Source: Candidatus Omnitrophota bacterium (GTDB lineage Bacteria; Omnitrophota; Gorgyraeia; Gygaellales; Profunditerraquicolaceae). Taken from it: a DNA stretch of 64,000 nucleotides. Under the pieces are notes generated by a model. That model did not search any database. It worked only from the letters and a program-made list of their open reading frames with translations, and was not told where the DNA came from. The stretch lies in contig JAUSED010000005.1 in the NCBI GenBank assembly GCA_030650425.1, positions 142,932 through 206,931 on the forward strand, read 5' to 3'. Shown here piece after piece: positions 34,923 to 61,991 of this stretch. Positions within the stretch are counted from its first letter, which is position 1. Each line of letters begins with the position of its first letter. A program made the position numbers and the translations under genes.

Positions 34923-34994
34923 TTTTCGTGGAGGAGAAAGGAGCGAGTCGGCACCTGTAACTTAAAACCTATAACCTAAAACCCAAAAAGGAGG

Positions 34995-36161: not shown

Positions 36162-36192
36162 GAGTAACATTTGAGGTTTAGTTTTACGTCAT

Positions 36193-36284: not shown

Positions 36285-36305
36285 GGCTCAAACATTTAAA
36301 CATTT

Positions 36306-45175: not shown

Positions 45176-45225
45176 CGTATAGCGTAGAGCGGATAGCGGA
45201 TAGAAAAAACTAAACGCTATACGCT
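45173..45225. repeat. Perfect 13-bp inverted repeat TAGCGTATAGCGT...ACGCTATACGCTA with 27-nt loop, between nrdJ and apgM
   Basis: Overlaps the nrdJ stop. Possible terminator or regulatory hairpin. Confidence 0.6.
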
Positions 45226-45239
45226 AAACGCTAAAAATT

Positions 45240-46523
45240 ATGAAAAAGATACTCTATATAGTTTTAGATGGCCTAGGCGATCTGCCTATTAAAGAACTTA
45301 ACAATAAGACTCCGCTTGAGGCAGCGGTTACTCCGAATATGGATCGGCTGGCGCAAAAAGGGAAAACCGGGATTGTTTATCCCGTAGGAAAGGGAATCGC
45401 GCCTGAATCGGATATCGCGGTAATCAGTTTGCTTGGGTACGACGCGCATAAATATTATACTGGACGCGGCCCGTTAGAATCATTTGCCGAAGGCCTAGCC
45501 GTAAATGACGGAGATGTGGCTTTTCGGGTAAATTTTGCCACGGTTAGCGAAGACGGAAAAACCATTAGAGACAGGCGCGTAGGCAGAAATCTTACCAGCG
45601 AAGAAGCGGCTGGTTTAGCCAAAGAGATTAATGCCAAGGTTACTTTATCCAGCGCTACCTTTGAATTTAAGAGTACGATCGGCCATCGGGGTATTCTGGT
45701 GATTAGAGGGATGCACCAGAAATTATCCGGTTGGATTACTAATACTGACCCAGCGTATGATCGGGAGGGAGTATTCGGCGTAGCCAAAGAAAAATTTGAT
45801 AACTTAGCAGCAGTATCCGAACCTATGCCGGGATACGAAAATTCTCAGGAAGCTAAAGAAGCATCCAAACTGCTTAATGAATTTACCGAAAAATCGATTA
45901 AAGTTTTAAACGAGTCGGCAATCAATAAAAAGAGGGTTAGTGAGGCTAAGATGCCCGGTAATTTGATTCTCTCCCGCGATGCCGGAGACCATCTGCCAAA
46001 ATTTCCCCCTATTTCAAGTGTTTTCAATTTAAAATTCGGTTCATTTGTCGTGATGCCGGTGGAAAAAGGTATCGCCTTGCTTACCGGAATCGATATTATC
46101 GATGTGCCGCAGTCAAGCGGGCATCTGGATGTAGATTATCCTGTCTGGGCTAAGATCGCGCTGGAGTCCATCCAGAAATATGACGGAATTTATGTGCACA
46201 TTAAAGGCCCGGATGAACCGGCGCACGACGGAGATTTCCAAAAGAAGAAAGAGAGTATTGAGGCGATCGATAAATATTTTTTTACCAGCCTATTAAGTAA
46301 ATTAGACCTTGCTAATACGATTATCGCCATCACCGCGGATCACTCTACTGTCTGCAGCGTAAGAGCGCACACCGCTGACCCTGTTCCTTTGCTTGTTTGC
46401 GGCGGGAACATCAAAGCCGACGGCTCAATGAGTTTTTCCGAAAGGGCGGCTAAGCTTGGTTCGATCGGAGAAATGCTTGGCCGCGAAATCCTGCCTTACC
46501 TTGTAAAACTCGCTAAAGAATAA
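45240..46523 (+). CDS. apgM: 2,3-bisphosphoglycerate-independent phosphoglycerate mutase, archaeal type
   Basis: N-terminal MKKILYIVLDGLGD and overall ApgM layout. Confidence 0.8.
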   Translation: MKKILYIVLDGLGDLPIKELNNKTPLEAAVTPNMDRLAQKGKTGIVYPVGKGIAPESDIAVISLLGYDAHKYYTGRGPLESFAEGLAVNDGDVAFRVNFATVSEDGKTIRDRRVGRNLTSEEAAGLAKEINAKVTLSSATFEFKSTIGHRGILVIRGMHQKLSGWITNTDPAYDREGVFGVAKEKFDNLAAVSEPMPGYENSQEAKEASKLLNEFTEKSIKVLNESAINKKRVSEAKMPGNLILSRDAGDHLPKFPPISSVFNLKFGSFVVMPVEKGIALLTGIDIIDVPQSSGHLDVDYPVWAKIALESIQKYDGIYVHIKGPDEPAHDGDFQKKKESIEAIDKYFFTSLLSKLDLANTIIAITADHSTVCSVRAHTADPVPLLVCGGNIKADGSMSFSERAAKLGSIGEMLGREILPYLVKLAKE

Positions 46524-46526
46524 AAT

Positions 46527-46630
46527 ATAGGGACCGTTTCTATTTTTTCATAATAGGGGACACTTTCCTACACGCGTTTACTATCTGCTGGAAAGTGTCC
46601 CCTGAAAGAAGAAAAATAGAACCGTCCCCT
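46527..46630. repeat. Nested palindromic element: outer GGGACCGTTTCTATTTTT/AAAAATAGAACCGTCCCC around inner GGGGACACTTTCC/GGAAAGTGTCCCC
   Basis: Member of the GGGGACACTTTCC family. Fills the apgM-mnmG intergenic space. Confidence 0.7.
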
Positions 46631-46632
46631 TT

Positions 46633-48489
46633 ATGCCTAATATTTTTATGGATACTTACGATGTTATAGTTATCGGCGCTGGGCACGCGGGTATTGAGGC
46701 TGCTTTAGCTTCGGCTCGCTTAGGCTGCAAGACGCTTATGTTGACGATGGATATTCATTCCATCGGCCGGATGAGTTGTAATCCGGCAATCGGCGGAGTA
46801 GGGAAGGGACAATTAGTTAAGGAAGTCGATGCCTTGGGCGGTCAAATGGGCCTGGCAGCAGATGCCTGCGGCATCCAATTCAGGATACTTAATGCCTCTA
46901 AAGGCCGGGCAGTACAGTCATCGCGCGCTCAGATTGATATGCATAGATATAACCAGTATATGCAAGAACTGGTTATGCATACTGCTAACCTGGAAATTAA
47001 GGAAGCGGAAGTTAAAAGATTAATCGTTCAAGAAGATCGCGTAAGGGGGGTACTTACTTCTAGGGGGGAAGAGATAGAAGCCAGCACGGTAATTATTGCG
47101 CCCGGGACTTTTTTAGATGGATTAATTCATGTAGGTTTAAAACACTTTAGCGCGGGGCGCCTTAACGAGCCTGCTGCCAGCGGCTTAGGCGATCACCTAA
47201 AGGCATTAGGGTTTGGAGTCTTAAGGTTTAAAACCGGGACCTGCCCGCGTTTGGATAAAAATACGATTAATTATTCCAAGTTGATTATCCAGTATGGCGA
47301 TACAAACCCTAAGCCTTTTTCTTTTGCGACGGATAAGCTTAGCCAAAAACAAATCCCCTGTCATCTAACTTATACCAATCAAGAGACGCATAAAATAATT
47401 TTAGAGAATCTGGATAGATCGCCGCTTTATACCGGCCTAATCAAGGCCACCGGCGTGCGCTACTGTCCTTCCATCGAGGATAAGATCGTCAGGTTCAAAG
47501 ACAAAGAGAGGCATCAGATATTTTTAGAGCCGCAGGGACTGGATACGCATGAAGTTTATCCCAACGGAATTTCTACAAGTTTACCTGAAGATCTCCAGCT
47601 TAAAATAATCCATTCCATCGAGGGGCTCCAAAACGCGAAAGTCATCCGTTATGGTTACGGGATAGAATACAGTATGGTAGAACCTACGCAGTTATATCCT
47701 ACGTTGGAAACAAAGAGGATTAAAAATTTATATCTGGCCGGCCAGATTAACGGGACTACCGGTTACGAAGAAGCAGCTGCTCAAGGTTTAGTCGCCGGGA
47801 TTAACGCGGTTTTAAAAGTTAAAAATAAAGAACCGCTGGTTTTGGACCGCTCTTCCAGTTATATCGGAGTCTTAATCGATGACCTGACCACTAAAGGCAC
47901 GAATGAGCCTTACCGGATGTTTACTTCGCGCGTGGAATACCGCCTGATTTTACGCGAAGATAACGCGGATACGCGTTTAAGTAAGCTTGGCGCAGCGATA
48001 GGATTATTGAGCGAGGAACGTTACGCATTAACCCAGAAAAAAATAAAAGAGATTGAAAGAGGGATAAAATTACTGAAAAACACCAGAATAAAACCTACTA
48101 CGGAGGTTAACGCAGTATTGAGCCGGTTGAATTCTTCTTTGCTGAAAAGAGAGGCAACTTTGGAAGAACTACTCAAGCGGCCGCAGATTGGTTTAGCGGA
48201 TATTCGCAGTTTGGCTAAATTTACTATTGCGCAAGAGGTGGAAATCGAGGTAAAATATAGCGGATTTATCCAGCGCCAGCTCAAGGACGTAGAAAAATTT
48301 AAAAACCTGGAGAAAATAAAGATTCCTGTTTTAATTGATTATGCAATTATTCCCAGCCTCTCGCGCGAGATTAAAGAGAAACTGGGGAAATTTAAACCGC
48401 TTAATTTAGGGCAGGCTTCCCGCATATCCGGGGTAACTCCGGTAGCAATCTCAATTTTAATGATTTATTTAAGGAAACTCAATGGATAA
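46633..48489 (+). CDS. mnmG: tRNA uridine 5-carboxymethylaminomethyl modification enzyme MnmG (GidA)
   Basis: YDVIVIGAGHAGIEAALASAR FAD motif, 618 aa. Confidence 0.9.
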   Translation: MPNIFMDTYDVIVIGAGHAGIEAALASARLGCKTLMLTMDIHSIGRMSCNPAIGGVGKGQLVKEVDALGGQMGLAADACGIQFRILNASKGRAVQSSRAQIDMHRYNQYMQELVMHTANLEIKEAEVKRLIVQEDRVRGVLTSRGEEIEASTVIIAPGTFLDGLIHVGLKHFSAGRLNEPAASGLGDHLKALGFGVLRFKTGTCPRLDKNTINYSKLIIQYGDTNPKPFSFATDKLSQKQIPCHLTYTNQETHKIILENLDRSPLYTGLIKATGVRYCPSIEDKIVRFKDKERHQIFLEPQGLDTHEVYPNGISTSLPEDLQLKIIHSIEGLQNAKVIRYGYGIEYSMVEPTQLYPTLETKRIKNLYLAGQINGTTGYEEAAAQGLVAGINAVLKVKNKEPLVLDRSSSYIGVLIDDLTTKGTNEPYRMFTSRVEYRLILREDNADTRLSKLGAAIGLLSEERYALTQKKIKEIERGIKLLKNTRIKPTTEVNAVLSRLNSSLLKREATLEELLKRPQIGLADIRSLAKFTIAQEVEIEVKYSGFIQRQLKDVEKFKNLEKIKIPVLIDYAIIPSLSREIKEKLGKFKPLNLGQASRISGVTPVAISILMIYLRKLNG

Positions 48490-49150
48490 AAATAAGAATT
48501 ACGTTGGTTTAAAGAAATTCGCCCAGAGCCAAGGAATAGATTTATTCGGCGTGGCGGATATTCAAAGCGTAAAAAATGATTTTAAGTTATCGGAAAACTT
48601 GCTTTCTGAGTTGGATAAAGCGCTTTGTTTAGGGATGAGGCTTGCGCAAAGTATTTTAGCTGAAATTTCAAACGCGCCCACGCGGCTTTATTTCCACCAT
48701 TACCGGACAGTGAACGCGGCTTTAGATCAAGCAGCCTTAAAGACCGCTAACTTTATACAAAATAAGGGATTTAGGGCGCTTCCGATTCCCGCCTCGATCA
48801 TCCTGGATTGGGAAAATCAAACAGCGCACCTCTCGCATAAGAAGCTTGGGGTTTTCGCCGGTCTTGGCTGGATAGGAAGGAATAATCTGCTGGTGAATAA
48901 AAAAATAGGGAGCCAATTCAGGCTGGCCACGATCCTGACGGATATGCCTCTAAAGCTTGACCAGCCGGTTAAAGAAGATTGCGGAAACTGCCGTTTATGT
49001 GTTAATATATGTCCTGCGCAGGCAATTAAAGATAAGCCGGCTGATTTTGGCCACATTAAGTGTTTTGATAAACTGAAAGAATTCCAGAAGAATAAATTGG
49101 TGGATCAGTATATCTGCGGTGTCTGCGTCAATGTCTGTAAGAGTAAATAA
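48482..49150 (+). CDS. 4Fe-4S cluster protein, epoxyqueuosine reductase (QueG)-like, short form
   Basis: CGNCRLCVNICPAQAI ferredoxin motif and QueG-like N-terminus. Overlaps mnmG by 8 nt. Confidence 0.45.
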   Translation: MDKNKNYVGLKKFAQSQGIDLFGVADIQSVKNDFKLSENLLSELDKALCLGMRLAQSILAEISNAPTRLYFHHYRTVNAALDQAALKTANFIQNKGFRALPIPASIILDWENQTAHLSHKKLGVFAGLGWIGRNNLLVNKKIGSQFRLATILTDMPLKLDQPVKEDCGNCRLCVNICPAQAIKDKPADFGHIKCFDKLKEFQKNKLVDQYICGVCVNVCKSK

Positions 49151-49153
49151 TCT

Positions 49154-49624
49154 ATGGCTGATTTATATCTGACTAAAAAAGGGCATCAAAAGTTAGTTGA
49201 AGAGCTGGAGTATTTAAAGACAACTAAGCGCAGGCAGCTTTCTAAAGCTATAGGCGAGGCTCGGGCCCACGGTGATATATCCGAGAATGCCGAGTATGAC
49301 GCGGCCAAGGATGCCCAAGGGATGAATGAAAAAAGGATCGCCGAGCTGGAGCAGAAGCTTTCTTCGGCCCGCATTCTCGATGAGAATATCTCTTCGGATG
49401 AGGTTTTAATCGGCGCGAAGGTTAAACTCAAGGATTTAGCTACGGGTGAAGAATTAGAATACACACTTGTTTCGGGTGAAGAAGCAAATTACGAGGAGAA
49501 CAAGATTTCCATTGCTTCTCCTATTGGCAGCGCCCTGCTGAACCATAAGATTAACGAAGTAGTCGAGATTAAGATTCCCGCCGGCATGATCAAGTATAAA
49601 ATCCTCAAAATATCCAGAGATTAA
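49154..49624 (+). CDS. greA: Transcription elongation factor GreA
   Basis: GDISENAEYDAAKD motif, 156 aa. Confidence 0.9.
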   Translation: MADLYLTKKGHQKLVEELEYLKTTKRRQLSKAIGEARAHGDISENAEYDAAKDAQGMNEKRIAELEQKLSSARILDENISSDEVLIGAKVKLKDLATGEELEYTLVSGEEANYEENKISIASPIGSALLNHKINEVVEIKIPAGMIKYKILKISRD

Positions 49625-49711
49625 ACCTTGACCCCCCTATCAATTTGCGGTAAGATTACTTATTAATTATAAATTGTCGGTAGTTAATCCTTTTAGAGAA
49701 AGTGAGGGAAA

Positions 49712-50197
49712 ATGGAAGAGATATTGGAGATATTGGAAAAAGACGGCCGGATTACTCCCGAAGAAATAGCCAAGATGCTCAAGAAGAAGCCGGAAGAGGT
49801 GAAAGCGGCGATTAAGAAATACGAAAAAGAGGGCGTGATCTTAAAGTATAAGGCGGTAATCAATAAAGATTTAGTGAAAAGCGAGGATTCCAGCGTCCGG
49901 GCGCTCATCGAAGTGAGTATTATCCCGCAGAAAGACGCTGGCTTTGATAAGCTTGCCGAGAGGATTTATTCGTTTCCTGAGGTTTCCAGCTGTTATCTTA
50001 TTTCAGGCACCTATGACCTTTTGGTGATTGTGGAAGGCAGGAATATCCATACGGTTTCCAGTTTTGTCGCCGAGAAACTCTCCTGTTTGGAAAATGTCCG
50101 CAGGACAACCACGCATTTCTTGCTCAAAAAATATAAGGAAGACGGCGTGATTCTGAAGCAAAAAGAAGAGAATAAGAGGATAGCGATATCGTATTGA
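49712..50197 (+). CDS. Lrp/AsnC-family transcriptional regulator
   Basis: N-terminal HTH ILEILEKDGRITPEEIAKML plus RAM-like C-terminus. GAGGG SD. Confidence 0.7.
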   Translation: MEEILEILEKDGRITPEEIAKMLKKKPEEVKAAIKKYEKEGVILKYKAVINKDLVKSEDSSVRALIEVSIIPQKDAGFDKLAERIYSFPEVSSCYLISGTYDLLVIVEGRNIHTVSSFVAEKLSCLENVRRTTTHFLLKKYKEDGVILKQKEENKRIAISY

Positions 50198-50210
50198 AAA
50201 CCAATCAACA

Positions 50211-50296
50211 GTAGGGGCGCTTTCCACTAAACAGAAGGGGACACTTTCCTTTTGAGGCTTTTATTAGAGCCCTGACGGAAAGTGTCCCCTACTAAG
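50211..50296. repeat. Palindromic element with GTAGGGG-degenerate arm, GGGGACACTTTCC arm, 27-nt loop and GGAAAGTGTCCCCTAC arm
   Basis: Immediately 3' of the lrp stop. Same arm sequence as 46555 and 57297. Confidence 0.7.
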
Positions 50297-50322
50297 GTTT
50301 AGAAAGTATCCTCTAGAATATT

Positions 50323-51477
50323 ATGCAAAATATTATTTCTAAAAAAGTAGAACGCATACAGCCATCGGGTATCCGGGCATTTTTTGATTTAGTGCTCGGG
50401 ATGAAGGAGGTTATCTCTTTAGGTGTTGGAGAACCGGATTTTGTCACGCCTTGGGCTATCCGCGAGGCGGGCATCTATTCGCTGGAACAGGGCCTTACCA
50501 GCTATACCTCAAATAAGGGCTTATATAAGTTACGCCTAGGGCTCTCCCGCTATCTAAAGACGAAATATAATCTTGACTATTCTCCCGATGACGAAATATT
50601 GATCACTGTGGGAGTAAGCGAAGGCGTAGACTTAGCCTTAAGGACGATCATCAACCCGCAAGATAAAATAATTATTCCTCAACCGAGCTACGTCTCTTAT
50701 GGCCCGGTCACAGAATTAGCCGGAGGCATACCTATATATATCGATACCACAAAAGATAATTTCAAGCTTACTCCTGAAAAACTAGAAAAGGTGATTGATA
50801 AGAGAACTAGGGGCATCATCTTAAATTACCCGACTAACCCTACCGGAGTTTCGTATCGCTATAAGGAGTTGGAGGCTTTGAATAAAATCATATTAAAACA
50901 TAAGCTCATTTGTTTCTCAGATGAAGTTTATGGTGACCTGACCTATGATTTTAACCACGTTTCTTTCCCTACCTTGCCGGGCGCAAAGAGGAATACCGTC
51001 TATCTTAACGGATTTTCTAAGACCTTCGCGATGACCGGATGGCGCGTGGGATTTGCCTGCGGCCCGAAAGAGATTATCGCGGGGATGACTAAAATCCATC
51101 AATACACGATTATGTGCGTTCCTATAACCAGTCAAATGGCTGCGGCTGAAGCGCTGGTGAGCGGAAAAAAATCCGTAGAAGAAATGAAACGGGAATACCG
51201 CCGTCGCCGCGAGTTTGTGGTGGAAGAGCTTAACCAAGCGGGGCTAACCTGTAATAAGCCGGATGGCGCGTTTTACGCGTTCCCATCCATCAAGAAAACC
51301 GGATTAAGCTCTTTAGAGTTTTCTCAAAATTTACTTAAAGAAGAGAAGGTCGCCGTGGTTCCGGGAACTGCCTTTGGTTCCTGCGGGGAAGGTTATTTAA
51401 GGATTTCTTACGCTTCCAGTATGGATAATCTGAAAGAGGCGTTGCGTAGGATCAAGAAGTTTTTAGATAAGAGTTAA
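50323..51477 (+). CDS. Pyridoxal-phosphate-dependent aminotransferase, class I/II
   Basis: GFSKTFAMTGWRVG PLP-lysine motif, 384 aa. Confidence 0.8.
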   Translation: MQNIISKKVERIQPSGIRAFFDLVLGMKEVISLGVGEPDFVTPWAIREAGIYSLEQGLTSYTSNKGLYKLRLGLSRYLKTKYNLDYSPDDEILITVGVSEGVDLALRTIINPQDKIIIPQPSYVSYGPVTELAGGIPIYIDTTKDNFKLTPEKLEKVIDKRTRGIILNYPTNPTGVSYRYKELEALNKIILKHKLICFSDEVYGDLTYDFNHVSFPTLPGAKRNTVYLNGFSKTFAMTGWRVGFACGPKEIIAGMTKIHQYTIMCVPITSQMAAAEALVSGKKSVEEMKREYRRRREFVVEELNQAGLTCNKPDGAFYAFPSIKKTGLSSLEFSQNLLKEEKVAVVPGTAFGSCGEGYLRISYASSMDNLKEALRRIKKFLDKS

Positions 51478-51479
51478 TA

Positions 51480-52205
51480 ATGGCTAAAACCAAGACAGAT
51501 CATTATGAGGTTTACATCAAGCAGATCGAGGCGCTGGCCAAGGTAGCTAACCTGATTAATTCGGGGATGTATCTTGAAGAACTGCTGCGTTTGATCGTGC
51601 AGGTAACTGCCGAGATCATGAACTCCAAGATTTCTTCGCTGATGCTGCTTGACCCGGCTAAAAATGAATTGGTAGTTAGGGCAACGCAATCCATTTCCGA
51701 GGCCTATAACAAAAAACCGAATATAAAGCTAGGCGAAGGGATTGCCGGTATTGTTGCTCAAGAGAACAAGCCGCTCTGCGTTTTGGATGTCCGAGAAGAC
51801 AGCCGTTATTTAAACCGCGATATTGCTAAAAAAGAAAGACTTTATTCACTGGCCTGCGTGCCGCTTGCGGTTAAGGGGAGGGTTATCGGTGTATTAAACT
51901 GTTATACTTCCAAAAAGCATATATTCTCTAAACATGAACTAGATCTGCTTAGCGCGCTGGCAAATCAGGCTGCGATTGCTATTGAAAACGCCGAGCTGGA
52001 TTTACGGGCGCGCTCTGCCGAAGAGGCTTTGACTACCCGTAAACTAGTTGAACGGGCAAAAGAGATCTTATCGCAAGAGGCGAATATTTTGCCTGCGGAG
52101 GCGTACAGGTTGATTCAGAAGCAGAGTATGGACTCGCGTAAGTCCATGCGCGAGGTGGCTGAGGCGATTATTTTAGCCAAGGATATTAGGGCTAAGAAAC
52201 CATAA
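51480..52205 (+). CDS. GAF plus ANTAR domain RNA-binding antiterminator-type regulator
   Basis: N-terminal GAF fold and C-terminal ANTAR (ALTTRKLVERAKEILS...MREVAEAIIL). Confidence 0.75.
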   Translation: MAKTKTDHYEVYIKQIEALAKVANLINSGMYLEELLRLIVQVTAEIMNSKISSLMLLDPAKNELVVRATQSISEAYNKKPNIKLGEGIAGIVAQENKPLCVLDVREDSRYLNRDIAKKERLYSLACVPLAVKGRVIGVLNCYTSKKHIFSKHELDLLSALANQAAIAIENAELDLRARSAEEALTTRKLVERAKEILSQEANILPAEAYRLIQKQSMDSRKSMREVAEAIILAKDIRAKKP

Positions 52206-52268
52206 TAGGATAACGGATGATGGATTATGGATTGTGGATAAATGAATTCGTAATTTCGTAATTTAGTA

Positions 52269-52296
52269 TTGACAAGTATTAAGTTTGTGGTATACT
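52269..52296 (+). promoter_or_regulatory. Sigma70 promoter (TTGACA-16-TATACT) for the porin-amt-glnK operon
   Basis: Shares the TTGACAAGTA -35 context with the nrdJ promoter. Confidence 0.55.
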
Positions 52297-52299
52297 TTA

Positions 52300-52437
52300 A
52301 TTGTTACAGAGATGTAGCAGTAAGACGTTGAGGTCTTCTGGGTAAGCAAGGTTACCGGAAGGCCTCGTTCATTTTATAGGACTAAGGCGTCCTTTTCCCC
52401 CAAAGAAGGGGCAGAGGGCGTTTTTTTTGCGCCTTTT
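52300..52437 (+). promoter_or_regulatory. Structured roughly 140-nt leader with small hexaloop hairpin (AGAC-gttgag-GTCT at 52323-52336) and GC-rich segment followed by a T8 run at 52421-52428. Candidate attenuator or ANTAR target.
   Basis: Leader lies between the promoter and the porin start. Sits next to the GAF-ANTAR gene. Confidence 0.35.
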
Positions 52438-52457
52438 TACTTAAGGGAGGCAGTAAG

Positions 52458-53252
52458 ATGAAATCAAAAGTTTTGTTTTCTCTGTTTTCTGTTCTTTGTT
52501 TTCTCCCCGCTTTTTGTTACGCCACGCCCTCAACCCTTATCTGGACGCCGTCAACGGATATCCAGCCGTATGGGAAAATACATTTAACGGTCGATAACTA
52601 TACTCCGGTAAGAAGCAGAGATCATAATGATAATCAGCTCTACGTGCAGCAGGTTTACGGCCCAACCTTTAGTTTGTTGTCGGATAAGCCGGAGGATAAT
52701 CTTTTAGGTAAACTTTGGAACCCTTTGGCTAAAATAATGGCGGAGACGGGTTTTGACTATAAAAAGGGGCTCGGTCCAACGTTAGATAAATGGCCGGTCT
52801 ATTTTCATTTTAAGGCCGGCGTTCCGGAGGACGCCTATTTTAAGTATATGCCGGCATTTGCAGTTGGAGCGTATGATCTGGGCTATAAACATAATTTTAC
52901 CAATAATAATGTCTGGTATCTACGAGGGGCAAAAACAATAAGTGCAGGTAAAGTTAATCTGGGAAGGTTTTCCGTAGGATACTTTAACGGAAACGGCAGA
53001 TTATTGCGCGACAAAAATAATGAACGCGATAATAGCGGCCTGATGCTTGCCTGGGACAGGACAATGTGCGAGATAAGCGATAAGTTATGGCTCAGCGTGG
53101 ATTATCAGGGTACGCAGTCAGCCTACGGAGCGCTGAATTATGGCTTATCCTGGAAGTTTACCAAGAATATCTCCGCGATTTTAGCTTACGATGTATATAA
53201 TAATCCAAATTTAAAGAACACGGTCACTTTCCAATTAGACGTCGATTTTTAA
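52458..53252 (+). CDS. Outer-membrane beta-barrel (porin-like) protein
   Basis: Signal peptide, alternating amphipathic strands, C-terminal ...VDF aromatic residue. Confidence 0.55.
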   Translation: MKSKVLFSLFSVLCFLPAFCYATPSTLIWTPSTDIQPYGKIHLTVDNYTPVRSRDHNDNQLYVQQVYGPTFSLLSDKPEDNLLGKLWNPLAKIMAETGFDYKKGLGPTLDKWPVYFHFKAGVPEDAYFKYMPAFAVGAYDLGYKHNFTNNNVWYLRGAKTISAGKVNLGRFSVGYFNGNGRLLRDKNNERDNSGLMLAWDRTMCEISDKLWLSVDYQGTQSAYGALNYGLSWKFTKNISAILAYDVYNNPNLKNTVTFQLDVDF

Positions 53253-53324
53253 AAAGAGGAGAAGGCACCCGGCGCTGATTTGCATTGCGCCGGTGCTGTG
53301 TTCGTACACAAGGAGGGAAGTAAA

Positions 53325-54554
53325 ATGATTAATGCGGGAGATACAGCGTGGGTTTTGATCTCATCGGCACTGGTTTTACTGATGACCCCGGCCTTGGCGT
53401 TTTTTTACGGCGGGATGGTCAGGCGTAAGAACGTCCTAAGCGTTCTGATGCAATGTTTCATTATCATGTGTGTTTTAAGTATTCATTGGGTTTTGATCGG
53501 TTATAGTATATCTTTTGCTCCGGCAAAAGGGTTTTGGGGAGGCTTGCAATGGTTGGGATTGCGTGGCGTGGGTTTAGAGCCGTATACGGATTACGCAGGC
53601 ACGATTCCGCATCAGGCGTTTATGATCTTTCAGGGGATGTTCGCGATTATTACACCGGCGCTGATTATCGGCGCTTTTGCCGAGAGAATGAAATTTTCAG
53701 CGTTTTTGGTTTTTACTCTTTTATGGGCAACTTTTGTTTATGGGCCTTTAGCACATTGGGTCTGGGGTATGGGAGGATGGCTGCGCAATATCGGAGCGCT
53801 GGATTTTGCCGGCGGGACAGTCGTACATATTAATGCCGGTATCGCGGCGTTAGTTACAGCGATAATCTTAGGAAAGAGGACCACCTTAAACAATCATATT
53901 CCCTCTCCGCACAATATGCCTTTTGTGGTTTTAGGCACAGGGCTCTTGTGGTTTGGCTGGTTTGGATTTAATGCCGGAAGCGCTTTGGCCGCAAATGGCC
54001 TGGCAGTAAATGCTTTTGTAGTGACCAATACTGCCGCCGCAGCCGCGGGCCTAAGCTGGGCTTTAATCGAATGGATACATAACGGAAAGCCTACGATATT
54101 CGGCGTATGTTCAGGAGCTGTCGCGGGCTTAGTCGCGATTACCCCTGCCGCGGGATTTGTCAACGCGATTTCCGCGATCGTCATTGGATTATTGGTAAGC
54201 GTATTCTGTTTTATCGCGGTTACCGTAGTTAAACCTAAATTCGGCTATGATGATTCTCTGGATGCGTTTGGCGTGCACTGTGTAGGCGGTATATGGGGGG
54301 CACTCGCCACTGGTTTATTTGCTTCTAAGGCAGTGAATGCCGCTGGAGCAGACGGCCTGTTTTTTGGTAATCCCAAACAGTTTTTGGTGCAACTTCTGGC
54401 CGTAGGCGTAACCATTGTTTATACTGGGATAGTTACTCTGGTTATTTATAAAATAGTTGATTTATTCATTGGTGTGAGGGTGGATGAAAAATCTGAAGCG
54501 ATGGGCCTTGATCTTACCCAGCACCACGAAAGGGCATATACGGTATTAGAATAG
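53325..54554 (+). CDS. amt: Ammonium transporter Amt
   Basis: AAGGAGGGAAG SD before the ATG at 53325 (the track's 53280 start is upstream of the SD). 11-TM Amt family sequence. Confidence 0.85.
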
Positions 54555-54556
54555 AG

Positions 54557-54595
54557 AAAAGGTGACAGTCACGAATTTCGTGACTGTCACCTTTT
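54557..54595. repeat. Perfect palindrome AAAAGGTGACAGTCACGAA-t-TTCGTGACTGTCACCTTTT between amt and glnK
   Basis: 19-bp arms. Same family as 36224-36262. Confidence 0.75.
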
Positions 54596-54609
54596 CCAGG
54601 GGAGGAAAG

Positions 54610-54951
54610 ATGAAACTTATCATTGCGATCATCCAGCCGCACAGATTAGAAGAAGTAAAGGAGGAGTTATATAAGGCAGAAATTAATTTGATTACCGTAA
54701 GTGAGGTTTTGGGCCATGGCCGCCAGAAAGGCGTTACCGAATTCTACCGCGGGCACAAAGAAACAGGAAACCTGTTAAGGAAGATTCGTCTAGAAATTGC
54801 CGTAAATGATAATTTTACTGAACCGACGATTAAGGCAATTATGAAAGGGGCGAAGACCGGTTCCACCGGTGATGGGAAGATCTTTGTTCTAGACCTAAAA
54901 GACTGCGTGCGTATCCGTACCGAAGAACGCGGCGCAACGGCTATTGGGTAA
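54610..54951 (+). CDS. glnK: Nitrogen regulatory protein P-II
   Basis: [10 protein letters not shown]...GDGKIFV. GGGGAGGAAAG SD. 113 aa. Confidence 0.85.
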
Positions 54952-55051
54952 ATATGGTTACCAAAGCTAATCTTTTTTTACTTGTATGATTGACGATAGA
55001 TTGAAAGCTAGGGAAGCAAAAAGAATGCCTCTGTTATTTTTTTAGGGATTG

Positions 55052-55060
55052 TGTTATAAT
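55052..55060 (+). promoter_or_regulatory. Extended -10 (TGtTATAAT) candidate promoter for glnN
   Basis: About 30 nt upstream of the GGAGGAAGAA SD and ATG at 55091. Confidence 0.4.
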
Positions 55061-55090
55061 ACAACCATTAAAATAGGCAAGGAGGAAGAA

Positions 55091-57283
55091 ATGAGTATAA
55101 GACAAAAAGTACTGTTTAAGATTAGAAGTATTGAGTTGGCCAAAATCGAAACGCCTAAGAAAGTATCTGCTTATTTCGGCGAGAATACCTTTAGTATGGA
55201 GGCTATGCAGAAGCATATTTCCAAGGATACTTTTGAAGCTTTTAAGACCTGGATGTCTGAAGGCAAGACGATTACTTTAGAGCAGGCGAATGAAATTGCC
55301 AACGCGATGAAGGATTGGGCGATGGCTAAAGGCGCCAGCTATTATACTCACTGGTTTCAGCCGATGACCGGCCTGACCGCGGAGAAACACGATAGTTTTA
55401 TCTCGATTACCGGACCGGGGAAAGTAATTGAAAAGTTTTCCGGAAATAAATTAATTCAAGGTGAACCTGATGCCTCCAGTTTTCCTTCAGGCGGGATCCG
55501 CGCTACCTTTGAAGCGCGTGGTTATACTGCCTGGGATCCTTCCAGCCCCGCGTTTATCATCGAGAGTAAACTCGGTAAAACCCTGTGTATCCCGACCATC
55601 TTTATTTCTTATCACGGCGAGGCCTTGGACAAGAAGTTGCCGCTTTTACGTTCTGACGAGGCATTAAATAAAGCAGCTTTGGGATTATTAAAGCTTTTCG
55701 GTCATAAAGATATCAAGAAAGTATTTTCCACCTGCGGCCCGGAGCAGGAATATTTCCTGATCGATAAGAATTACTATAATCTGCGCCAAGATTTAGTGAT
55801 GACCGGCAGGACTTTAATCGGGGCGCCTTCGCCTAAGGGCCAGCAGTTGGAAGACCAGTATTTTGGAACGATCAAAGAGCGGGTGGTCAATTTTATGTTT
55901 GAGGTAGCCGAGGAAGCATATAAGTTAGGCATACCTGTAATGACCCGGCATAATGAAGTCGCTCCGCACCAGTATGAATTTGCCCCTATTTTCGAAGAGT
56001 CAAATATAGCCGCGGACCACAATCAGCTTTTAATGGAGCTGATGAAGAAAGTTGCTTTAAGGCATGATATGGTCTGTCTTTTACATGAGAAACCCTTTGC
56101 CGGAATAAACGGCAGCGGAAAACACTTGAATTGGTCACTTGCCGATGACAAGGGGAACAATTTGCTTAATCCGGGTCAAACTCCGGAAGACAATTTACAG
56201 TTTCTGGCGGTGTTAGCCGCGGTTTTACGCGCGGTGCACACGCATGCCGATCTCTTGCGCGCCTCAGTGGCGATGGCGGGGAATGAACATCGTTTAGGTG
56301 CCAATGAAGCTCCGCCGGCAATTATCAGCGTATTCTTGGGAGAACAGCTGACCGGGATCCTGAATATGATTGAAAAAGGGGCAAAGTCCAAAGTTTCTAA
56401 GGGCGATATTATCGATTTGGGGATCGGCCGGCTCCCTAAATTTAACAAAGATACGACTGACCGGAACCGCACCTCGCCTTTTGCCTTTACCGGAGCAAAG
56501 TTTGAATTCCGCGCGGTGGGTTCCTCCCAGAATATTTCCACGCCTATCACGGTAATTAATACGGTTATTGCCGAAAGCCTTGATTATGTCGCTGGGAAGA
56601 TTAAAGCAGAATCCAACGGGAAGGATTTTAATGCCGCGGCCCTCAAGGTTATCTCTGAAATAGTTAAAGAAACAAAAGATATTCGTTTTGAAGGGAATAA
56701 TTACGCTGAGGAATGGATAAAAGAGGCAAAGAAGCGCAAGCTTCCTAATGTGGCTTCTACTTATGAGGCCTTGGAAGCTTTAACTAAAGAAAAGAATATT
56801 TCGCTTTTTGAGAAATATAAAGTCTTTTCCAAAGAAGAACTGATTGCCCGTTACCATATTTGGATTCACATGTACAACTTGACGCTTGAGATCGAGGCAA
56901 ATACCTTAAAAGAAATGGTTAATGCTTCGGTTGTCCCGGCGGGTTACGAGTATGAAAAGCTGCTGGCCGGTACTTTACATGAGTTAAACAACCTTAAGAA
57001 ATCAGCCGGCCTTAAGCTGGACTTAGCCGCGTTAAAAGACAAGAAGGAGCATCTTGCTGAGATTGTTGCCAAAATTTACTATGTCAGGCGTAATACCTTA
57101 GAGATGGATAAGCTGTTGGATAAAGCTAAAGAATTAAGCAATGAAAAACGCGCTGAAATTTACTTTAAAGAATTAAAGCCTTTGATGGAGCATATCAGAA
57201 AGCACGTGGATCAACTGGAGTGCGTAGTTTCTGATGACGCTTGGGATTTACCTAAATATCGCGAGATGCTGTTTATAAAATAA
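55091..57283 (+). CDS. glnN: Glutamine synthetase type III
   Basis: About 730 aa, GSIII-length. Start chosen at the SD-preceded ATG. Confidence 0.8.
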   Translation: MSIRQKVLFKIRSIELAKIETPKKVSAYFGENTFSMEAMQKHISKDTFEAFKTWMSEGKTITLEQANEIANAMKDWAMAKGASYYTHWFQPMTGLTAEKHDSFISITGPGKVIEKFSGNKLIQGEPDASSFPSGGIRATFEARGYTAWDPSSPAFIIESKLGKTLCIPTIFISYHGEALDKKLPLLRSDEALNKAALGLLKLFGHKDIKKVFSTCGPEQEYFLIDKNYYNLRQDLVMTGRTLIGAPSPKGQQLEDQYFGTIKERVVNFMFEVAEEAYKLGIPVMTRHNEVAPHQYEFAPIFEESNIAADHNQLLMELMKKVALRHDMVCLLHEKPFAGINGSGKHLNWSLADDKGNNLLNPGQTPEDNLQFLAVLAAVLRAVHTHADLLRASVAMAGNEHRLGANEAPPAIISVFLGEQLTGILNMIEKGAKSKVSKGDIIDLGIGRLPKFNKDTTDRNRTSPFAFTGAKFEFRAVGSSQNISTPITVINTVIAESLDYVAGKIKAESNGKDFNAAALKVISEIVKETKDIRFEGNNYAEEWIKEAKKRKLPNVASTYEALEALTKEKNISLFEKYKVFSKEELIARYHIWIHMYNLTLEIEANTLKEMVNASVVPAGYEYEKLLAGTLHELNNLKKSAGLKLDLAALKDKKEHLAEIVAKIYYVRRNTLEMDKLLDKAKELSNEKRAEIYFKELKPLMEHIRKHVDQLECVVSDDAWDLPKYREMLFIK

Positions 57284-57296
57284 GATAGTGAATCTC

Positions 57297-57345
57297 AAGG
57301 GGACACTTTCCAACAAGTAGTTAACGCTCGTAGGAAAATGTCCCC
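57297..57345. repeat. Palindromic element AAGGGGACACTTTCC-21 nt loop-GGAAAATGTCCCCT
   Basis: Immediately 3' of the glnN stop. Loop shared with the copy at 28211-28257. Confidence 0.7.
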
Positions 57346-57353
57346 TACTGCTA

Positions 57354-57390
57354 AAACCCTCTGTGAAATTTCTTGCAGAGGGTTTTTCTT
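57354..57390 (+). terminator. Rho-independent terminator AAACCCTCTG-tgaaatttcttg-CAGAGGGTTTTTCTT
   Basis: 10-bp GC stem followed by a U-tract. Confidence 0.7.
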
Positions 57391-57410
57391 AGGTGTATTA
57401 TATATGCTCC

Positions 57411-60400
57411 ATGAATAATAGAGAAAAGTTAGAGAAATTTGGATTATACGATCCGCGTTTCGAGCATGATTCTTGCGGAGTGGGTTTTATTTGCAATGTC
57501 AAGGGAGTAAAATCCCATGAGATTGTCGCTTCCGGCATAGAGATACTTAAACGGCTGGCGCACCGCGGGGCTACCGGCGCTGATCCAAAGACAGGCGATG
57601 GTGCCGGCATACTCATACAGATGCCGCATGAATTTATGCTTAAGGCCGCAGGAGAAAATAATATTTCTCTGCCGCCAAAAGGCGCGTACGGCACAGGTCT
57701 AATTTTCCTTCCGCAGCTTGAGCCTGAGCGTAAGCTTTGTAAAGATATCTTTAGCAAGATTATCAAACAGGAGAAACAGCAATTACTTGGCTGGCGCAAA
57801 GTTCCTGTTGATAATACTGTTATAGGCAAGACAGCTCAGGAAACTCAGCCGGTGATTGAGCAGGTATTTATAGGGATTGCTTCGTCGTCCCGCCAAGGCG
57901 GGACTCCTCGCAATGACAACGATAATCTGGAATTTGAGAGAAAACTTTATTTAATCCGTAAGCAGGTTGAAAATAAAATCCGGGCATCCGCCTTAAAACA
58001 AAAATCCTTCTTCTATATTACGAATCTTTCCAGCCGCACTCTTTCCTATAAGGGTTTGCTGATGCCTGAACAGGTGGATAGTTTCTTCCCGGACTTAAAA
58101 GATCAAGATATGCGGAGTTGCTTGAGCCTAGTGCACTCGCGCTATTCCACGAATACCTTTCCTACCTGGGATTTATCCCAGCCATTTAGGTTTCTGGCGC
58201 ATAACGGAGAGATCAATACCCTGCGCGGAAATATTAATTGGATGACCGCTAGAGAGAGCCTGCTTAAAAGTAAGCATCTCGGAGACCTGAAGAAAATATT
58301 CCCGGTAATTGTCCCCGGAGGAAGCGATTCAGCCAGCATTGATAATGTTTTTGAGCTGCTTTATTTATCCGGGAGGAGCCTCCCGCACGCCATGATGATG
58401 CTTATCCCCGGCGCATGGGAGGAGAACCAGCTGCTTGATGAGAAGATAAGAGGGTTTTACCGCTTCCATACCTGTCTTATGGAGCCTTGGGACGGCCCGG
58501 CGGCAATCGCCTTTACCGACGGAACAAAGATCGGAGCGCTTTTAGACAGGAATGGCCTGCGTCCCGCGCGTTACTTGGTAACGAAGAACGATTTGGTAAT
58601 TATGGCTTCCGAGGTCGGGGTATTAGATATAAAACCGGCGGATATAGTTTATTCCGGAAGATTAGAGCCCGGAAAAATGTTTTTTATCGATACCGCGGCC
58701 GGTAAAATTATCGATGACGCTCAGGTTAAAAAAGAAGTATCCGTGATAAAGCCTTATCCGCGGTGGCTGAAAGATAATATTATAGAATTAGATAAGTTAT
58801 CAGAAAACAGAAGACAGAAAAAAGAAGACAGAAAAGGCTATAAAGGTTATCCGAAGCAAGATAGCTTAATCTTGCTGAAAGTATTCGGTTACACCCGCGA
58901 AGACTTGAAGTTTATCCTTAAGCCTATGGCCCGGGACGCTCAGGAACCGATTGGCTCAATGGGTAATGATGCTCCGCACGCGCTTTTATCCAGCAAGCCG
59001 CAGCTGCTCTTTAACTATTTTAAGCAGCTTTTCGCGCAGGTAACCAATCCGGCAATCGACCCTATCCGCGAAGAGCTGGTGATGAGCCTGCATACGTACC
59101 TGGGGCCGGAGAAAAACATCCTTGATGAAACTCCCGGGCACTGCCGCAAATTATTTATCAGGCATCCTGTCTTAAGTAACGCGGAGTTAGAGACGATCCG
59201 TAAAATAAAGAAGGCCGGATTTAAGACTAAAACAATATCGTTGCTTTTTGCAACCAAAGAGAAGGATGCTTTAGCCAAAGCAATCGCAAGGATCCGCAAG
59301 GAAACGGCTAAAGCCATAAAAGATAAATATACCTTTGTAATTTTATCCGATCGGGGGGTGGATCAAGAACATGCGGCTATCCCCAGTTTATTAGCCAGCG
59401 CGGCCCTGCACCATTATTTAGTGCGCCACTCACTGCGCACGCAGATTAGCCTGATTCTGGAGACTGCCGAGCCGCGCGAAGTGCATCACTTCGCCTTATT
59501 ATTCGCTTATGGCGCTGACTGCGTCAACCCTTATTTAGCATACGCGGCAGTGGAGAGCTTAGTGGATGATCAGGAATTGAGCATAGATAAACAGAGCGCG
59601 CTTAAACATTACCTTAAGGCGATTGATAAAGGGATTTTAAAGATCCTTTCTAAAATGGGTATTTCTACTTTACAGAGTTATCGCGGGGCGCAAATTTTTG
59701 AAGCCTTGGGGTTGAATCAAGATATGATTAACGAATATTTTAGCGGCACGGTTTCGCGGATTGGCGGAGCAGGCCTAGAGGTTATTGCTCAAGAAACCTT
59801 AATGCGCCATGAGCATGCCTTTAGCGAAACTGGCGATGGAGAGGGCCTTTTAGCCGCGGGAGGGATCTATCAATGGAAGCGCGACGGAGAATTCCATCTC
59901 TGGAATCCGGAGAGTATCGCGGCCTTACAGGATGCGGCGCGCAATAATGACGCCAAGCGCTATCAGGAATTTTCGCGGCTGATTAATGATCAGTCTGGCC
60001 AACCGGTTACCTTAAGGAGCCTTTTTAAATTTAAGCACTCTACTCCCATCCCGCTGGAAGAAGTAGAGCCGCTGGAAGAAATTATCAAACGTTTTGCCAC
60101 AGGCGCGATGAGTTTTGGCTCGATTTCCCGCGCTACGCACGAAACCATTGCCATCGCGATGAACCGCTTAGGAGGCAAGTCCAATACCGGAGAAGGGGGA
60201 GAAGATCCGGCGCGCTTTAGCCCGCTTCCTAACGGCGATTCCAAAAGAAGCGCGATCAAGCAGGTTGCCTCCGGCCGTTTTGGGGTGACCACAAATTATC
60301 TGGTGAATAGCGATGAAATACAAATTAAGATCGCTCAAGGGGCCAAACCCGGCGAGGGAGGGCAATTACCCGGGCATAAGGTAAGCGTAACTATCGCTAA

Positions 60401-61991
60401 GACCCGCTACACTACGCCCGGGGTTACTTTGATTTCTCCTCCGCCGCATCATGATATTTATTCGATCGAAGATCTGGCCCAGCTGATCTTCGATTTAAAA
60501 AACACTAATCCCGGAGCGCGGATTAGCGTGAAATTAGTCTCGGAAATCGGCGTGGGGACGATTGCCGCGGGCGTGGCAAAAGGCCATGCGGATATGATTT
60601 TAATTTCCGGCGGAGATGGAGGCACAGGGGCCTCACCGTTAAGCTCGATTAAACACGCGGGCTTGCCTTGGGAGTTAGGTATCGCTGAAACTAATCAAAC
60701 CTTAGTCCTAAATGATTTGCGCAGCCGCGTCCGTCTGCAGGCTGACGGCCAGATGCGCACAGGCAGGGATGTGGCTGTCGCCGCGCTCTTAGGCGCGGAA
60801 GAATTCGGATTTTGCACGGCGGTATTAATTACCTTAGGCTGTGTAATGCTGCGGCACTGTAATCTGAATACCTGTTCGGTGGGGATTGCCACGCAGGATG
60901 AAATGCTGGAAAAAAGATTTCAGGGCAAGCCCGAATATATTGAGAATTATTTTCGTTTTGTAGCCCAAGAGTTACGCCAGATTATGAGCGGGCTGGGCAT
61001 TAGAAGAATCGATGAACTGATCGGCCGTACTGATCTTTTAGAGCCGAATACGGCTATTCTTCCCTGGAAGGCAAAAGGAATGGATTTTTCACGCCTTTTC
61101 TACCGGCCGGCTTTAGCGGAAAATATCGGCAGGCATTGCTTGATTAAACAGAACCACGGTATTGATCAAGTTTTAGACCGTAAACTTATTGAGTTAGCCA
61201 AACCCAGCCTAAAGATGAGAGAATCAGTAAGGCATGAGCTTCCCATTAAGAATGTAAATCGTACTACCGGCGCGATGTTAAGCGGAGAAATTTGTAAGGC
61301 TTACGGAGAAGAAGGCTTGGCCGAAGATACGCTATATTTTAAATTTAAGGGTGTAGCCGGACAAAGCTTTGGCGCCTGGCTGGCCAAGGGTGTTACTTTT
61401 GAGCTGGAAGGCTTGAGTAATGATTATATAGGTAAAGGCATTTCAGGAGGTAAAATTATTGTTTATCCGGATAAAAATACGCATTATCAATCCGAAGAAA
61501 ATATTATTATCGGCAATACTACCTTTTATGGAGCGATCAGCGGCGAGGCATATATCCGCGGAGTAGCCGGAGAGAGATTCTGCATCAGGAATTCCGGGCT
61601 ATACGCGGTGGTAGAGGGAGTAGGCGACCATGCCTGTGAGTATATGACCGGAGGCCGGGTGGCCATCTTAGGCAAAACCGGCAGGAACTTTGGGGCAGGA
61701 ATGTCCGGAGGCATTGCTTATGTTTATGATCGTGATAGGCAGTTTAAATATAAATGCAATATGGGGATGGTAGAACTGGATAAACCTGACTCGCAAGACA
61801 GCGAAACAATTAAAAGGCTCCTTTCTAATCATTTCAAATACACGGCTAGCCCGTCGGCCAAAATAATTCTGGATAATTTAAGCCGGGAATTACCATATTT
61901 TGTTAAAGTTATGCCTTTGGAATACAAGAGGATCTTGGAAGAAAATAAAATGGCCAAGAAGTTGGATTTAGGGGAATATTCGGATGGGTGA
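57411..61991 (+). CDS. gltB: Glutamate synthase large subunit
   Basis: N-terminal glutaminase CGVGF, FMN and Cys-cluster regions, about 1526 aa. A GTG at 57393 is an alternative start. Confidence 0.9.
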   Translation: MNNREKLEKFGLYDPRFEHDSCGVGFICNVKGVKSHEIVASGIEILKRLAHRGATGADPKTGDGAGILIQMPHEFMLKAAGENNISLPPKGAYGTGLIFLPQLEPERKLCKDIFSKIIKQEKQQLLGWRKVPVDNTVIGKTAQETQPVIEQVFIGIASSSRQGGTPRNDNDNLEFERKLYLIRKQVENKIRASALKQKSFFYITNLSSRTLSYKGLLMPEQVDSFFPDLKDQDMRSCLSLVHSRYSTNTFPTWDLSQPFRFLAHNGEINTLRGNINWMTARESLLKSKHLGDLKKIFPVIVPGGSDSASIDNVFELLYLSGRSLPHAMMMLIPGAWEENQLLDEKIRGFYRFHTCLMEPWDGPAAIAFTDGTKIGALLDRNGLRPARYLVTKNDLVIMASEVGVLDIKPADIVYSGRLEPGKMFFIDTAAGKIIDDAQVKKEVSVIKPYPRWLKDNIIELDKLSENRRQKKEDRKGYKGYPKQDSLILLKVFGYTREDLKFILKPMARDAQEPIGSMGNDAPHALLSSKPQLLFNYFKQLFAQVTNPAIDPIREELVMSLHTYLGPEKNILDETPGHCRKLFIRHPVLSNAELETIRKIKKAGFKTKTISLLFATKEKDALAKAIARIRKETAKAIKDKYTFVILSDRGVDQEHAAIPSLLASAALHHYLVRHSLRTQISLILETAEPREVHHFALLFAYGADCVNPYLAYAAVESLVDDQELSIDKQSALKHYLKAIDKGILKILSKMGISTLQSYRGAQIFEALGLNQDMINEYFSGTVSRIGGAGLEVIAQETLMRHEHAFSETGDGEGLLAAGGIYQWKRDGEFHLWNPESIAALQDAARNNDAKRYQEFSRLINDQSGQPVTLRSLFKFKHSTPIPLEEVEPLEEIIKRFATGAMSFGSISRATHETIAIAMNRLGGKSNTGEGGEDPARFSPLPNGDSKRSAIKQVASGRFGVTTNYLVNSDEIQIKIAQGAKPGEGGQLPGHKVSVTIAKTRYTTPGVTLISPPPHHDIYSIEDLAQLIFDLKNTNPGARISVKLVSEIGVGTIAAGVAKGHADMILISGGDGGTGASPLSSIKHAGLPWELGIAETNQTLVLNDLRSRVRLQADGQMRTGRDVAVAALLGAEEFGFCTAVLITLGCVMLRHCNLNTCSVGIATQDEMLEKRFQGKPEYIENYFRFVAQELRQIMSGLGIRRIDELIGRTDLLEPNTAILPWKAKGMDFSRLFYRPALAENIGRHCLIKQNHGIDQVLDRKLIELAKPSLKMRESVRHELPIKNVNRTTGAMLSGEICKAYGEEGLAEDTLYFKFKGVAGQSFGAWLAKGVTFELEGLSNDYIGKGISGGKIIVYPDKNTHYQSEENIIIGNTTFYGAISGEAYIRGVAGERFCIRNSGLYAVVEGVGDHACEYMTGGRVAILGKTGRNFGAGMSGGIAYVYDRDRQFKYKCNMGMVELDKPDSQDSETIKRLLSNHFKYTASPSAKIILDNLSRELPYFVKVMPLEYKRILEENKMAKKLDLGEYSDG

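Follow-up and report, generated by a model that had tools for sequence, protein, structure and literature searches.

The 64,000-nucleotide stretch of DNA analysed here (the window) belongs to a Candidatus Omnitrophota bacterium (contig JAUSED010000005.1) and carries a family of short hairpin-forming palindromes built from the arm GGGGACACTTTCC and its inverted counterpart GGAAAGTGTCCCC. If the window is searched for GGGGACACTTTCC on both strands, allowing for up to two mismatches, ten matches are found compared to 0.94 expected, and none of 100 shuffled sequences that served as control got to ten. Exact arms occur exclusively in close pairs of one forward and one reverse arm (FR), and unpaired matches are seen only at two mismatches, which is the level of chance. 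The copies A, B and C lie between genes, and the copies D and E in the 3' end of a giant open reading frame (ORF).

Copy A occupies the complete gap of 109 nt between an apgM-like gene (45240-46523) and mnmG (46633-48489). Its inner hairpin (46556-46602, strand not assigned) consists of GGGGACACTTTCC, a loop of 21 nt and GGAAAGTGTCCCC, and is enclosed by an outer stem of a second hairpin family, GGGACCGTTTCTATTTTT / AAAAATAGAACCGTCCC, at 46530-46628. The region 46524-46632 is predicted to fold as RNA with -44.9 kcal/mol, corresponding to a z-score of -7.8. Copy B likewise fills a complete gap, the 125 nt between lrp (49712-50197) and an aminotransferase gene (50323-51477). Both arms of its inner hairpin (50237-50289, loop of 27 nt) are exact, and degenerate outer arms, GGGGCGCTTTCC (50214-50225) and GAAAGTATCCTC (50302-50313), surround it with a shell at 50214-50313, leading to a compound of two forward and two reverse arms (FFRR). 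A Logan contig covering the lrp region of the window terminates within this copy. Copy C (57299-57345) is composed of GGGGACACTTTCC, a loop of 21 nt and GGAAAATGTCCCC with one arm mismatch, and lies between glnN (55049-57283) and gltB (57393-61991). On its 3' side, at 57353-57389 of the + strand, a further hairpin with a U-run resembles an intrinsic terminator and stands outside the repeat family. The domain assignments of the genes flanking the three copies (Metalloenzyme/PhosphMutase, AsnC/Lrp and GSIII) agree with apgM, lrp and glnN. Directly after the stems of A, B and C, where the bases are TGAAAG, TACTAA and TACTGC, no U-run was found.

The giant ORF (65-28369, 9434 amino acids) reads through the two remaining copies at 28211-28324. 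Copy D is a degenerate pair, GGGAATACTTTCC ... GGAAAATGTCCCT, at 28211-28257, and its loop (28224-28244) is identical to the loop of copy C (57312-57332) at 20 of 21 positions. Copy E is a loopless palindrome of 16+16 nt, GTCGTAGGGGACATTT directly followed by AAATGTCCCCTACGAC, at 28293-28324 in the reading frame of the ORF. As these two elements encode the final ~53 codons (from 28211), the giant ORF appears to have lost its original 3' end and stop codon to the repeats. A Pfam search with the last 499 amino acids of the ORF revealed no domain. A sequence resembling part of copy E was seen outside the window (loci there carry L numbers): the terminator hairpin GTAGGGCACACTTAAATGTGCCCTAC 3' of a glutamine synthetase gene in L069 (2055-2085) is similar to GTAGGGGACATTTAAATGTCCCCTAC at 28296-28321, and the G/C change in the stem between both is compensatory.

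An earlier sequence-only reading of the window had described a palindrome family resembling repetitive extragenic palindromes (REPs), with copies behind apgM, lrp and glnN and twice at the end of the giant ORF, an outer stem nested around the first copy, a separate terminator behind the glnN copy, and an almost identical 21-nt loop in the copies starting at 28211 and 57297. All of this is confirmed by our analysis, with the addition that the two copies in the giant ORF are the degenerate pair and the loopless palindrome. The statement that a stop codon always directly precedes the elements is contradicted by the giant ORF, which continues through two of them. Intergenic elements in the window do always follow a stop codon because all genes of the window are on the + strand. 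RNA folding, suggested there as a check, gave z-scores of -5.4 to -7.8 against shuffled sequences for all element regions in the window. No hairpin had a match at gathering score in Rfam 15, and at E <=5 only spurious miRNA-type matches were obtained, on another hairpin family.

To follow the family beyond the window we searched GTDB species-representative genomes and JGI metagenome loci for exact arms paired across a loop of 15-40 nt. The exact hairpin is present at 74 loci outside the window. Sixteen of these are in GTDB genomes, 14 of them in records titled Omnitrophota: the metagenome-assembled genome (MAG) STB_56 accounts for 12, other Omnitrophota for two, and a MAG labelled Planctomycetia for the other two. 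The JGI metagenomes contribute 58 loci, and viral contigs contained no hairpin. In terms of density, the fragmentary STB_56 has at least 12 exact loci and the window has 3-5 copies in 64 kb. We found no mention of such repeats in the Omnitrophota literature examined; giant ORFs and a one-strand gene layout have been reported for Omnitrophota (preprint 10.1101/2023.11.21.568195).

Common to the elements is a stem of 14 bp, A-GGGGACACTTTCC / GGAAAGTGTCCCC-T, which encloses a loop of 16-36 nt. Across the loci the arms are invariant and the loops are of many unrelated types, in line with the conserved arms and variable loops noted for the few copies in the window. The polarity of the arms is always 5'-GGGG...CCCC-3', and in low-GC contigs the only conserved base outside the arm is the A at position -1 (82% of arms). 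Approximately one third of the elements are FFRR compounds, in which the hairpin is enclosed by a further pair of the same or a related arm, and which occur in 20 or more loci besides the window; a nesting of outer and inner hairpin like that of copy A is found at L050 4635-4752. As mechanical ORF calls in high-GC contigs are unreliable, the genomic context was counted for low-GC loci only. Here the placement is mostly intergenic, with 26 elements between tandem, four between convergent and two between divergent genes, four within mechanical ORFs and 17 at contig ends.

Several observations bear on the way the elements are distributed. In STB_56, 11 copies represent one unit of ~105 nt; they have a 25-nt loop in common, contain spacers of two types and stop sharply at the outer arms. 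In one metagenome, L073 and L020/L046, which are unrelated loci, carry the same compound unit of ~97 nt. Its GGGG...CCCC sequence is bounded by A and T, and its inner loop is inverted with respect to the outer shell. These units, the similar loops of copies C and D and the position of elements at contig ends suggest dispersal as a unit. A consistent target-site duplication was found neither at the 11 STB_56 copies nor at the L073/L020 pair, and its absence is what is expected for elements of Y1 (single-tyrosine) transposases. In the syntenic pairs L012/L068, L010/L050 and L067/L085 the element is present in one member and the site is empty in the other. The STB_56 locus L011 is syntenic with 54.6-59 kb of the window (amino acid identity of 85% for P-II and 66.5% for GltB), and the gap between glutamine synthetase gene and gltB is occupied in both by differently constructed elements, the one in L011 being a compound. 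Together with the giant ORF and the one-strand gene layout, this synteny makes the window Omnitrophota-like. The orientation of loops relative to genes, considered as evidence of insertion in both directions, was down-weighted because the flipped inner loop allows for an inversion in situ across the arms. On one side of an element in L008 (1519-1610), four tandem GGAAAGTGTCCCC alternate with the 13-nt spacer TTCAGCGTGGGGC (three copies) at a period of 26 nt, which suggests that units of arm plus spacer were amplified locally.

No gene recurs as a neighbour of the elements: an all-against-all clustering of 346 ORFs in their vicinity gave only syntenic pairs. Candidates for a REP-associated tyrosine transposase (RAYT) were detected by phmmer, using E. 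coli RayT against six-frame translations of all loci. In L066 an ORF of 162 amino acids (331-819, minus strand) has an exact hairpin at a distance of 170 nt and, on the opposite side, related palindromes; it is assigned to the Pfam family Y1_Tnp (E=1.6e-14). A weak RayT match at L008 1751-1999, by the tandem-arm array, lacked support from Pfam and was dropped. The L066 protein has 805 homologues, and the best 120 of these are nearly all 159-163 (~161) amino acids long and 54-77% identical; every named sequence among the best 120 is from Omnitrophica/Omnitrophota. The hallmarks of RAYTs are a Y1 transposase of the HUH type with the motifs HUH, WQxRF and YxxxNPV. In the family found here H60, H62, Y120, E122, N124 and P125 are invariant in 27 of 27 aligned sequences, leaving the catalytic residues intact. 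A profile search of the PDB returned E. coli TnpA-REP (4ER8) as best match over the full length (E=1.7e-8), compared to ~0.06 for TnpA of IS200 type; with the single sequence as query the PDB search gave no match. NCBIfam gave a single match, to the model for REP-associated tyrosine transposases (NF047646), scoring 75-79 bits with a cutoff of 80.

We fetched six additional RAYT loci (L077, L079, L081, L082, L083 and L084), which together with L066 makes seven independent ones. In the six fetched loci the RAYT is adjoined on both sides by housekeeping genes encoded on the other strand, which are arranged in long co-directional runs and differ between loci. The RAYT gene may be single-copy. Its start codon is preceded by a conserved stretch of ~45 nt ending in CGTCTATTAT-N-GGAGGT. 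The sequence-only reading had advised to look for an associated RAYT or TnpB, and the outcome is divided: a Y1 transposase exists in Omnitrophota relatives, the six fetched loci contain no tnpB, and a search with a hidden Markov model (HMM) found no RAYT in the 64-kb window.

The connection between this gene and the dispersed hairpins lies in its flanks. Conserved hairpin flanks surround the RAYT in 7 of 7 independent loci, with the pattern cAGACGCTTTCC-N10-GGAAA(C/G)TGT(C/A)CCC-N10-13-GGAAAGTGTCT upstream and GGG(G)(T)ACA(C/G)T(T/G)TC-N12-(A/G)GACNNTTTCC-N10-GGAAANNGTCTG downstream. If one mismatch is allowed, the core GACACTTTCC gives 25 matches within the 2.3 kb of RAYT flanks and six in the remaining 92 kb of these loci, a 165-fold difference (Poisson 2e-46), and several of the six matches outside the flanks are dispersed hairpins themselves. 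The upstream hairpin of L079 is AGACGCTTTCC-N10-GGAAACTGTCCCC, and its right arm GGAAACTGTCCCC equals the arm of the window at 12 of 13 positions; the same locus contains a second, gene-less copy of the entire 5' flank. The flanks further hold inverted GGGGACAG / GGGACAGTT / GGGGCAC. REP-RAYT systems are defined by just such a layout, a gene bracketed by hairpins that bear the common core.

We propose, with a probability of about 65%, that the hairpins are a REP-type (REPIN/TIR-like; TIR, terminal inverted repeat) family of non-autonomous palindromes that would be mobilised by the RAYT of Omnitrophota, which makes them a known kind of element in a new lineage. The REP-like and mobile part of the earlier proposal thereby gains support. 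A possible course of events starts with the hairpin extruding out of single-stranded DNA, the probable substrate, where it would be recognised via its stem sequence by the RAYT-type Y1 (HUH) transposase that is conserved in Omnitrophota and whose own gene is bracketed by hairpins on the GACACTTTCC core. Cleavage and rejoining at the foot of the hairpin could then copy or move units into intergenic gaps, and occasionally a unit might insert in the 3' end of a gene. This RAYT is presumably the enzyme that moves the hairpins, and the transcribed hairpins may have a secondary effect on mRNA 3' ends.

A number of points weigh against this proposal. Apart from the negative HMM search in the window, only one of the 74 loci selected by the element contains a RAYT, and in the 20-kb RAYT loci L077 and L079 no dispersed GGGGACACTTTCC hairpins were found. 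The arms in the RAYT flanks (AGACGCTTTCC / GGAAACTGTCCCC) and the dispersed ones are related, not identical, and CGTC, which is present in flank arms (GGAAAGCGTCT), is absent from the dispersed ones. Classical REPs end in a conserved GTAG (or CGTC) tetranucleotide. Here a GTAG head is not conserved, and GTAG precedes only some copies (50211, 28296, L002, L004 and L007). The score of the RAYT just under the equivalog cutoff of NCBIfam is a further point, and so is the identical 13-mer in Acidobacteriota-like contigs, where a partner transposase was not found.

The hairpins could instead be kept chiefly by selection on the transcript, as functional RNA in 3' UTRs or intercistronic regions acting as an exonuclease barrier or stabiliser, RNase III site, factor-dependent terminator or site for an RNA-binding protein. 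Their predicted RNA structures are indeed highly stable (z-scores of -5 to -10), they are mostly located between co-directional genes, as the low-GC counts indicate, and an element lies 3' of the glutamine synthetase gene in three different genomes. REPs in other organisms are known to influence mRNA stability (PMC3733652). Yet the arms are invariant instead of covarying, which argues for recognition of a specific sequence rather than of structure alone, loops and shells occur in either orientation relative to genes, copies exist in a coding frame, and Rfam contains no match. The stems lack a U-tract, and copy C as well as the element in L069 needs a separate terminator; an intrinsic terminator, and with it the terminator-associated alternative of the sequence-only reading, is therefore not supported. 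An explanation by RNA function also leaves the core beside the transposase gene unaccounted for. We therefore regard it as improbable as the chief explanation, while an RNA-level role as a secondary, exapted effect is plausible.

That the arms are inverted half-sites for a host DNA-binding protein, for example a regulator, a nucleoid protein or a receptor for DNA uptake, would fit the exact conservation of the 13-mer between species and even two phyla. Neisseria uptake sequences, too, occur paired behind genes. The half-sites are separated by anything between 0 and 36 nt, a variation that a dimer with a fixed footprint does not permit, and an uptake signal is contradicted by the lack of single arms within genes and by the low density of 3-5 per 64 kb, so that we consider such a site very unlikely. 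Still less credit is given to a miniature inverted-repeat transposable element (MITE), i.e. an internally deleted insertion sequence (IS) of the DDE type with GGGGACACTTTCC arms as TIRs and a full-length IS acting in trans. In favour of a MITE, the element has terminal inverted repeats, sharp ends, a small size and dispersed copies. On the other hand, a consistent target-site duplication was not found, arm pairs enclosing a gene are absent from all loci, in ~500 kb of loci no pair of arms 0.5-3 kb apart surrounds a transposase, no DDE transposase family recurs beside the elements, and the sole transposase tied to them by sequence is a Y1/HUH enzyme. Integron attC sites, CRISPR and dimeric operators were rejected on anatomy (housekeeping neighbours, no arrays with unique spacers and variable half-site spacing).

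Compared to the REP/REPIN-RAYT systems of E. coli (REP and bacterial interspersed mosaic elements, BIMEs, with RayT) and Pseudomonas (REPINs), the Omnitrophota elements share the short extragenic hairpin palindromes, their dispersal between co-directional or convergent genes, their occurrence in clusters or nested doublets, and a small Y1/HUH transposase gene, apparently outside any IS, flanked by repeats, with TnpA-REP of E. coli as nearest structure. They differ in their head, which is A-GGGGACAC without a conserved GTAG, in the score of their RAYT just below the NCBI equivalog cutoff, and in their host, a candidate phylum outside Proteobacteria. A REPIN consists of two inverted REPs that are each a stem-loop in themselves. 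Here the 13-nt arm lacks self-complementarity; the counterpart of one REP, not of a REPIN doublet, is a whole FR pair with an unusually long free loop of 16-36 nt, and FFRR is a nested hairpin.

A close parallel is offered by the TIRtrons (Di Nocera et al. 2013, PMC3733652), described in that study as RAYT-like genes between inverted repeats with GGGGWSAS in common, the repeats forming moderately abundant dispersed families as dimers or clusters. Judged by the published consensus, the Omnitrophota sequences GGGGACAC and GGGGACAG fit GGGGWSAS, and the flanking repeat of the Omnitrophota gene likewise belongs to a family dispersed in dimers and clusters, as described for TIRtrons and TIRYTs. The Omnitrophota gene differs from the TIRtrons in having one or more hairpins on each side instead of one simple TIR, and Omnitrophota were outside the sampling of that study. 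Bracketing by GGGGTCAG repeats, as in TIRtrons, is also seen for the high-GC RAYT-like genes L088 and L089. With the ends of IS200/IS605 and their PATE/MITE derivatives our elements have in common the Y1 HUH type, hairpins that are probably recognised in single-stranded DNA, and the lack of target duplications; they differ by the absence of tnpB, by a gene that may be single-copy, and by a protein that aligns far better to TnpA-REP than to IS200-type TnpA. The in-frame translatable copies at 28211-28324 recall Rickettsia palindromic elements and intragenic REPs. To the Rickettsia elements there is no sequence relationship, and in the window in-frame copies occur only at the extreme 3' end.

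The same arm is not restricted to Omnitrophota. About 24 metagenome loci (L019-L071) with a GC content of 63-72% carry the identical 13-mer, in the palindrome GAAAAT-GGGGACACTTTCC-ATTTCC...GGAAAT-GGAAAGTGTCCCC-ATTTTC, an AT-rich stem of 25 bp in DNA of 67% GC, between housekeeping genes. The one neighbour protein that was compared, a DPP-IV-like peptidase of L067, has named homologues with 66-75% identity that are almost all from Acidobacteriota/Vicinamibacterales, one being labelled Bacteroidales; the acidobacterial orthologous site L085 is empty. The high-GC and Omnitrophota contigs originate partly from one sediment metagenome series. The search for a partner transposase of the acidobacterial hairpins remained negative, and the high-GC RAYT-like loci L086, L088 and L089 are without GGGGACACTTTCC hairpins. 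For a second related arm, GAAAAGGTGACAGTC, there is one look-alike in the high-GC contigs. The 13-mer in two phyla may go back to a RAYT recognition code of GGGGWSAS type that is old and conserved, or to horizontal transfer. We consider it rather unlikely that a REP-RAYT system, or if not the system then the code by which it recognises DNA, crossed phylum boundaries; a possible route would be transfer between ultra-small, host-dependent Omnitrophota and bacteria associated with them.

We further report two other hairpin families. The second family (GGGACGGTTCTATTTTT / AAAAATAGAACCGTCCC), which provides the outer stem of copy A, is common in Omnitrophota loci (L050 4635-4752, L083 9947-10008, L011, L082 5685, L084 and L077). 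It forms the outer shell of a GGGGACACTTTCC hairpin in two unrelated genomes, at 46530-46628 of the window and in L050, and single arms of it adjoin the RAYT genes in L082 and L084. A third family with the arms GAAAAGGTGACAGTCACG is found in the window at 36190-36290 and 54556-54596, and its head GGTGACAGT is similar to GGGGACACT. At 36202-36263 two direct and one inverted GAAAAGGTGACAGTCACG arm lie inside a longer outer stem (-61 kcal/mol, z-score -11), and at 54556-54596 a perfect 20-bp stem separates amtB and glnK. One high-GC contig, L055, contains a look-alike of this family at its start. Short tandem or inverted low-complexity motifs (TAGCGTATAGCGT...ACGCTATACGCTA; GGATTATGGATTGTGGAT / TTCGTAATTTCGTAATT; AACCTATAACCTAAAACCC) were seen in the gaps 45176-45239, 52206-52265 and 34923-34994.

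A separate observation concerns the region between the aminotransferase gene and the nitrogen assimilation genes. A gene for a GAF-ANTAR protein (51480-52205) is followed on its 3' side by a strong promoter-like site, TTGACA-16-TATACT, at 52269-52296, and this by a structured leader of ~160 nt with a terminator-like hairpin and U-run (z-score -6.7). The leader precedes an ORF of no assigned function and then amtB-glnK-glnN-gltB. Taken together, the features at 51480-52457 resemble an antitermination leader of ANTAR type that would serve the nitrogen assimilation genes; Rfam gave no match for the putative leader.

Work on REP-RAYT systems has, to our knowledge, been carried out almost wholly in Proteobacteria. 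A RAYT throughout Omnitrophota, together with hairpins of its own, would extend these systems to the streamlined genomes of 1.6-2 Mb of uncultivated, host-dependent nanobacteria. For practical purposes A-GGGGACACTTTCC hairpins plus the 161-aa RAYT represent a sequence marker, and the repeats account for the breaks of Omnitrophota assemblies at these sites. The arm in Acidobacteriota could bear on the question whether such systems move horizontally, and a transfer across phyla, if true, would go against a strictly vertical inheritance of REPIN-RAYT systems. The Omnitrophota family could provide a second, independent system in which to test the idea of a domesticated partnership between RAYTs and their repeats.

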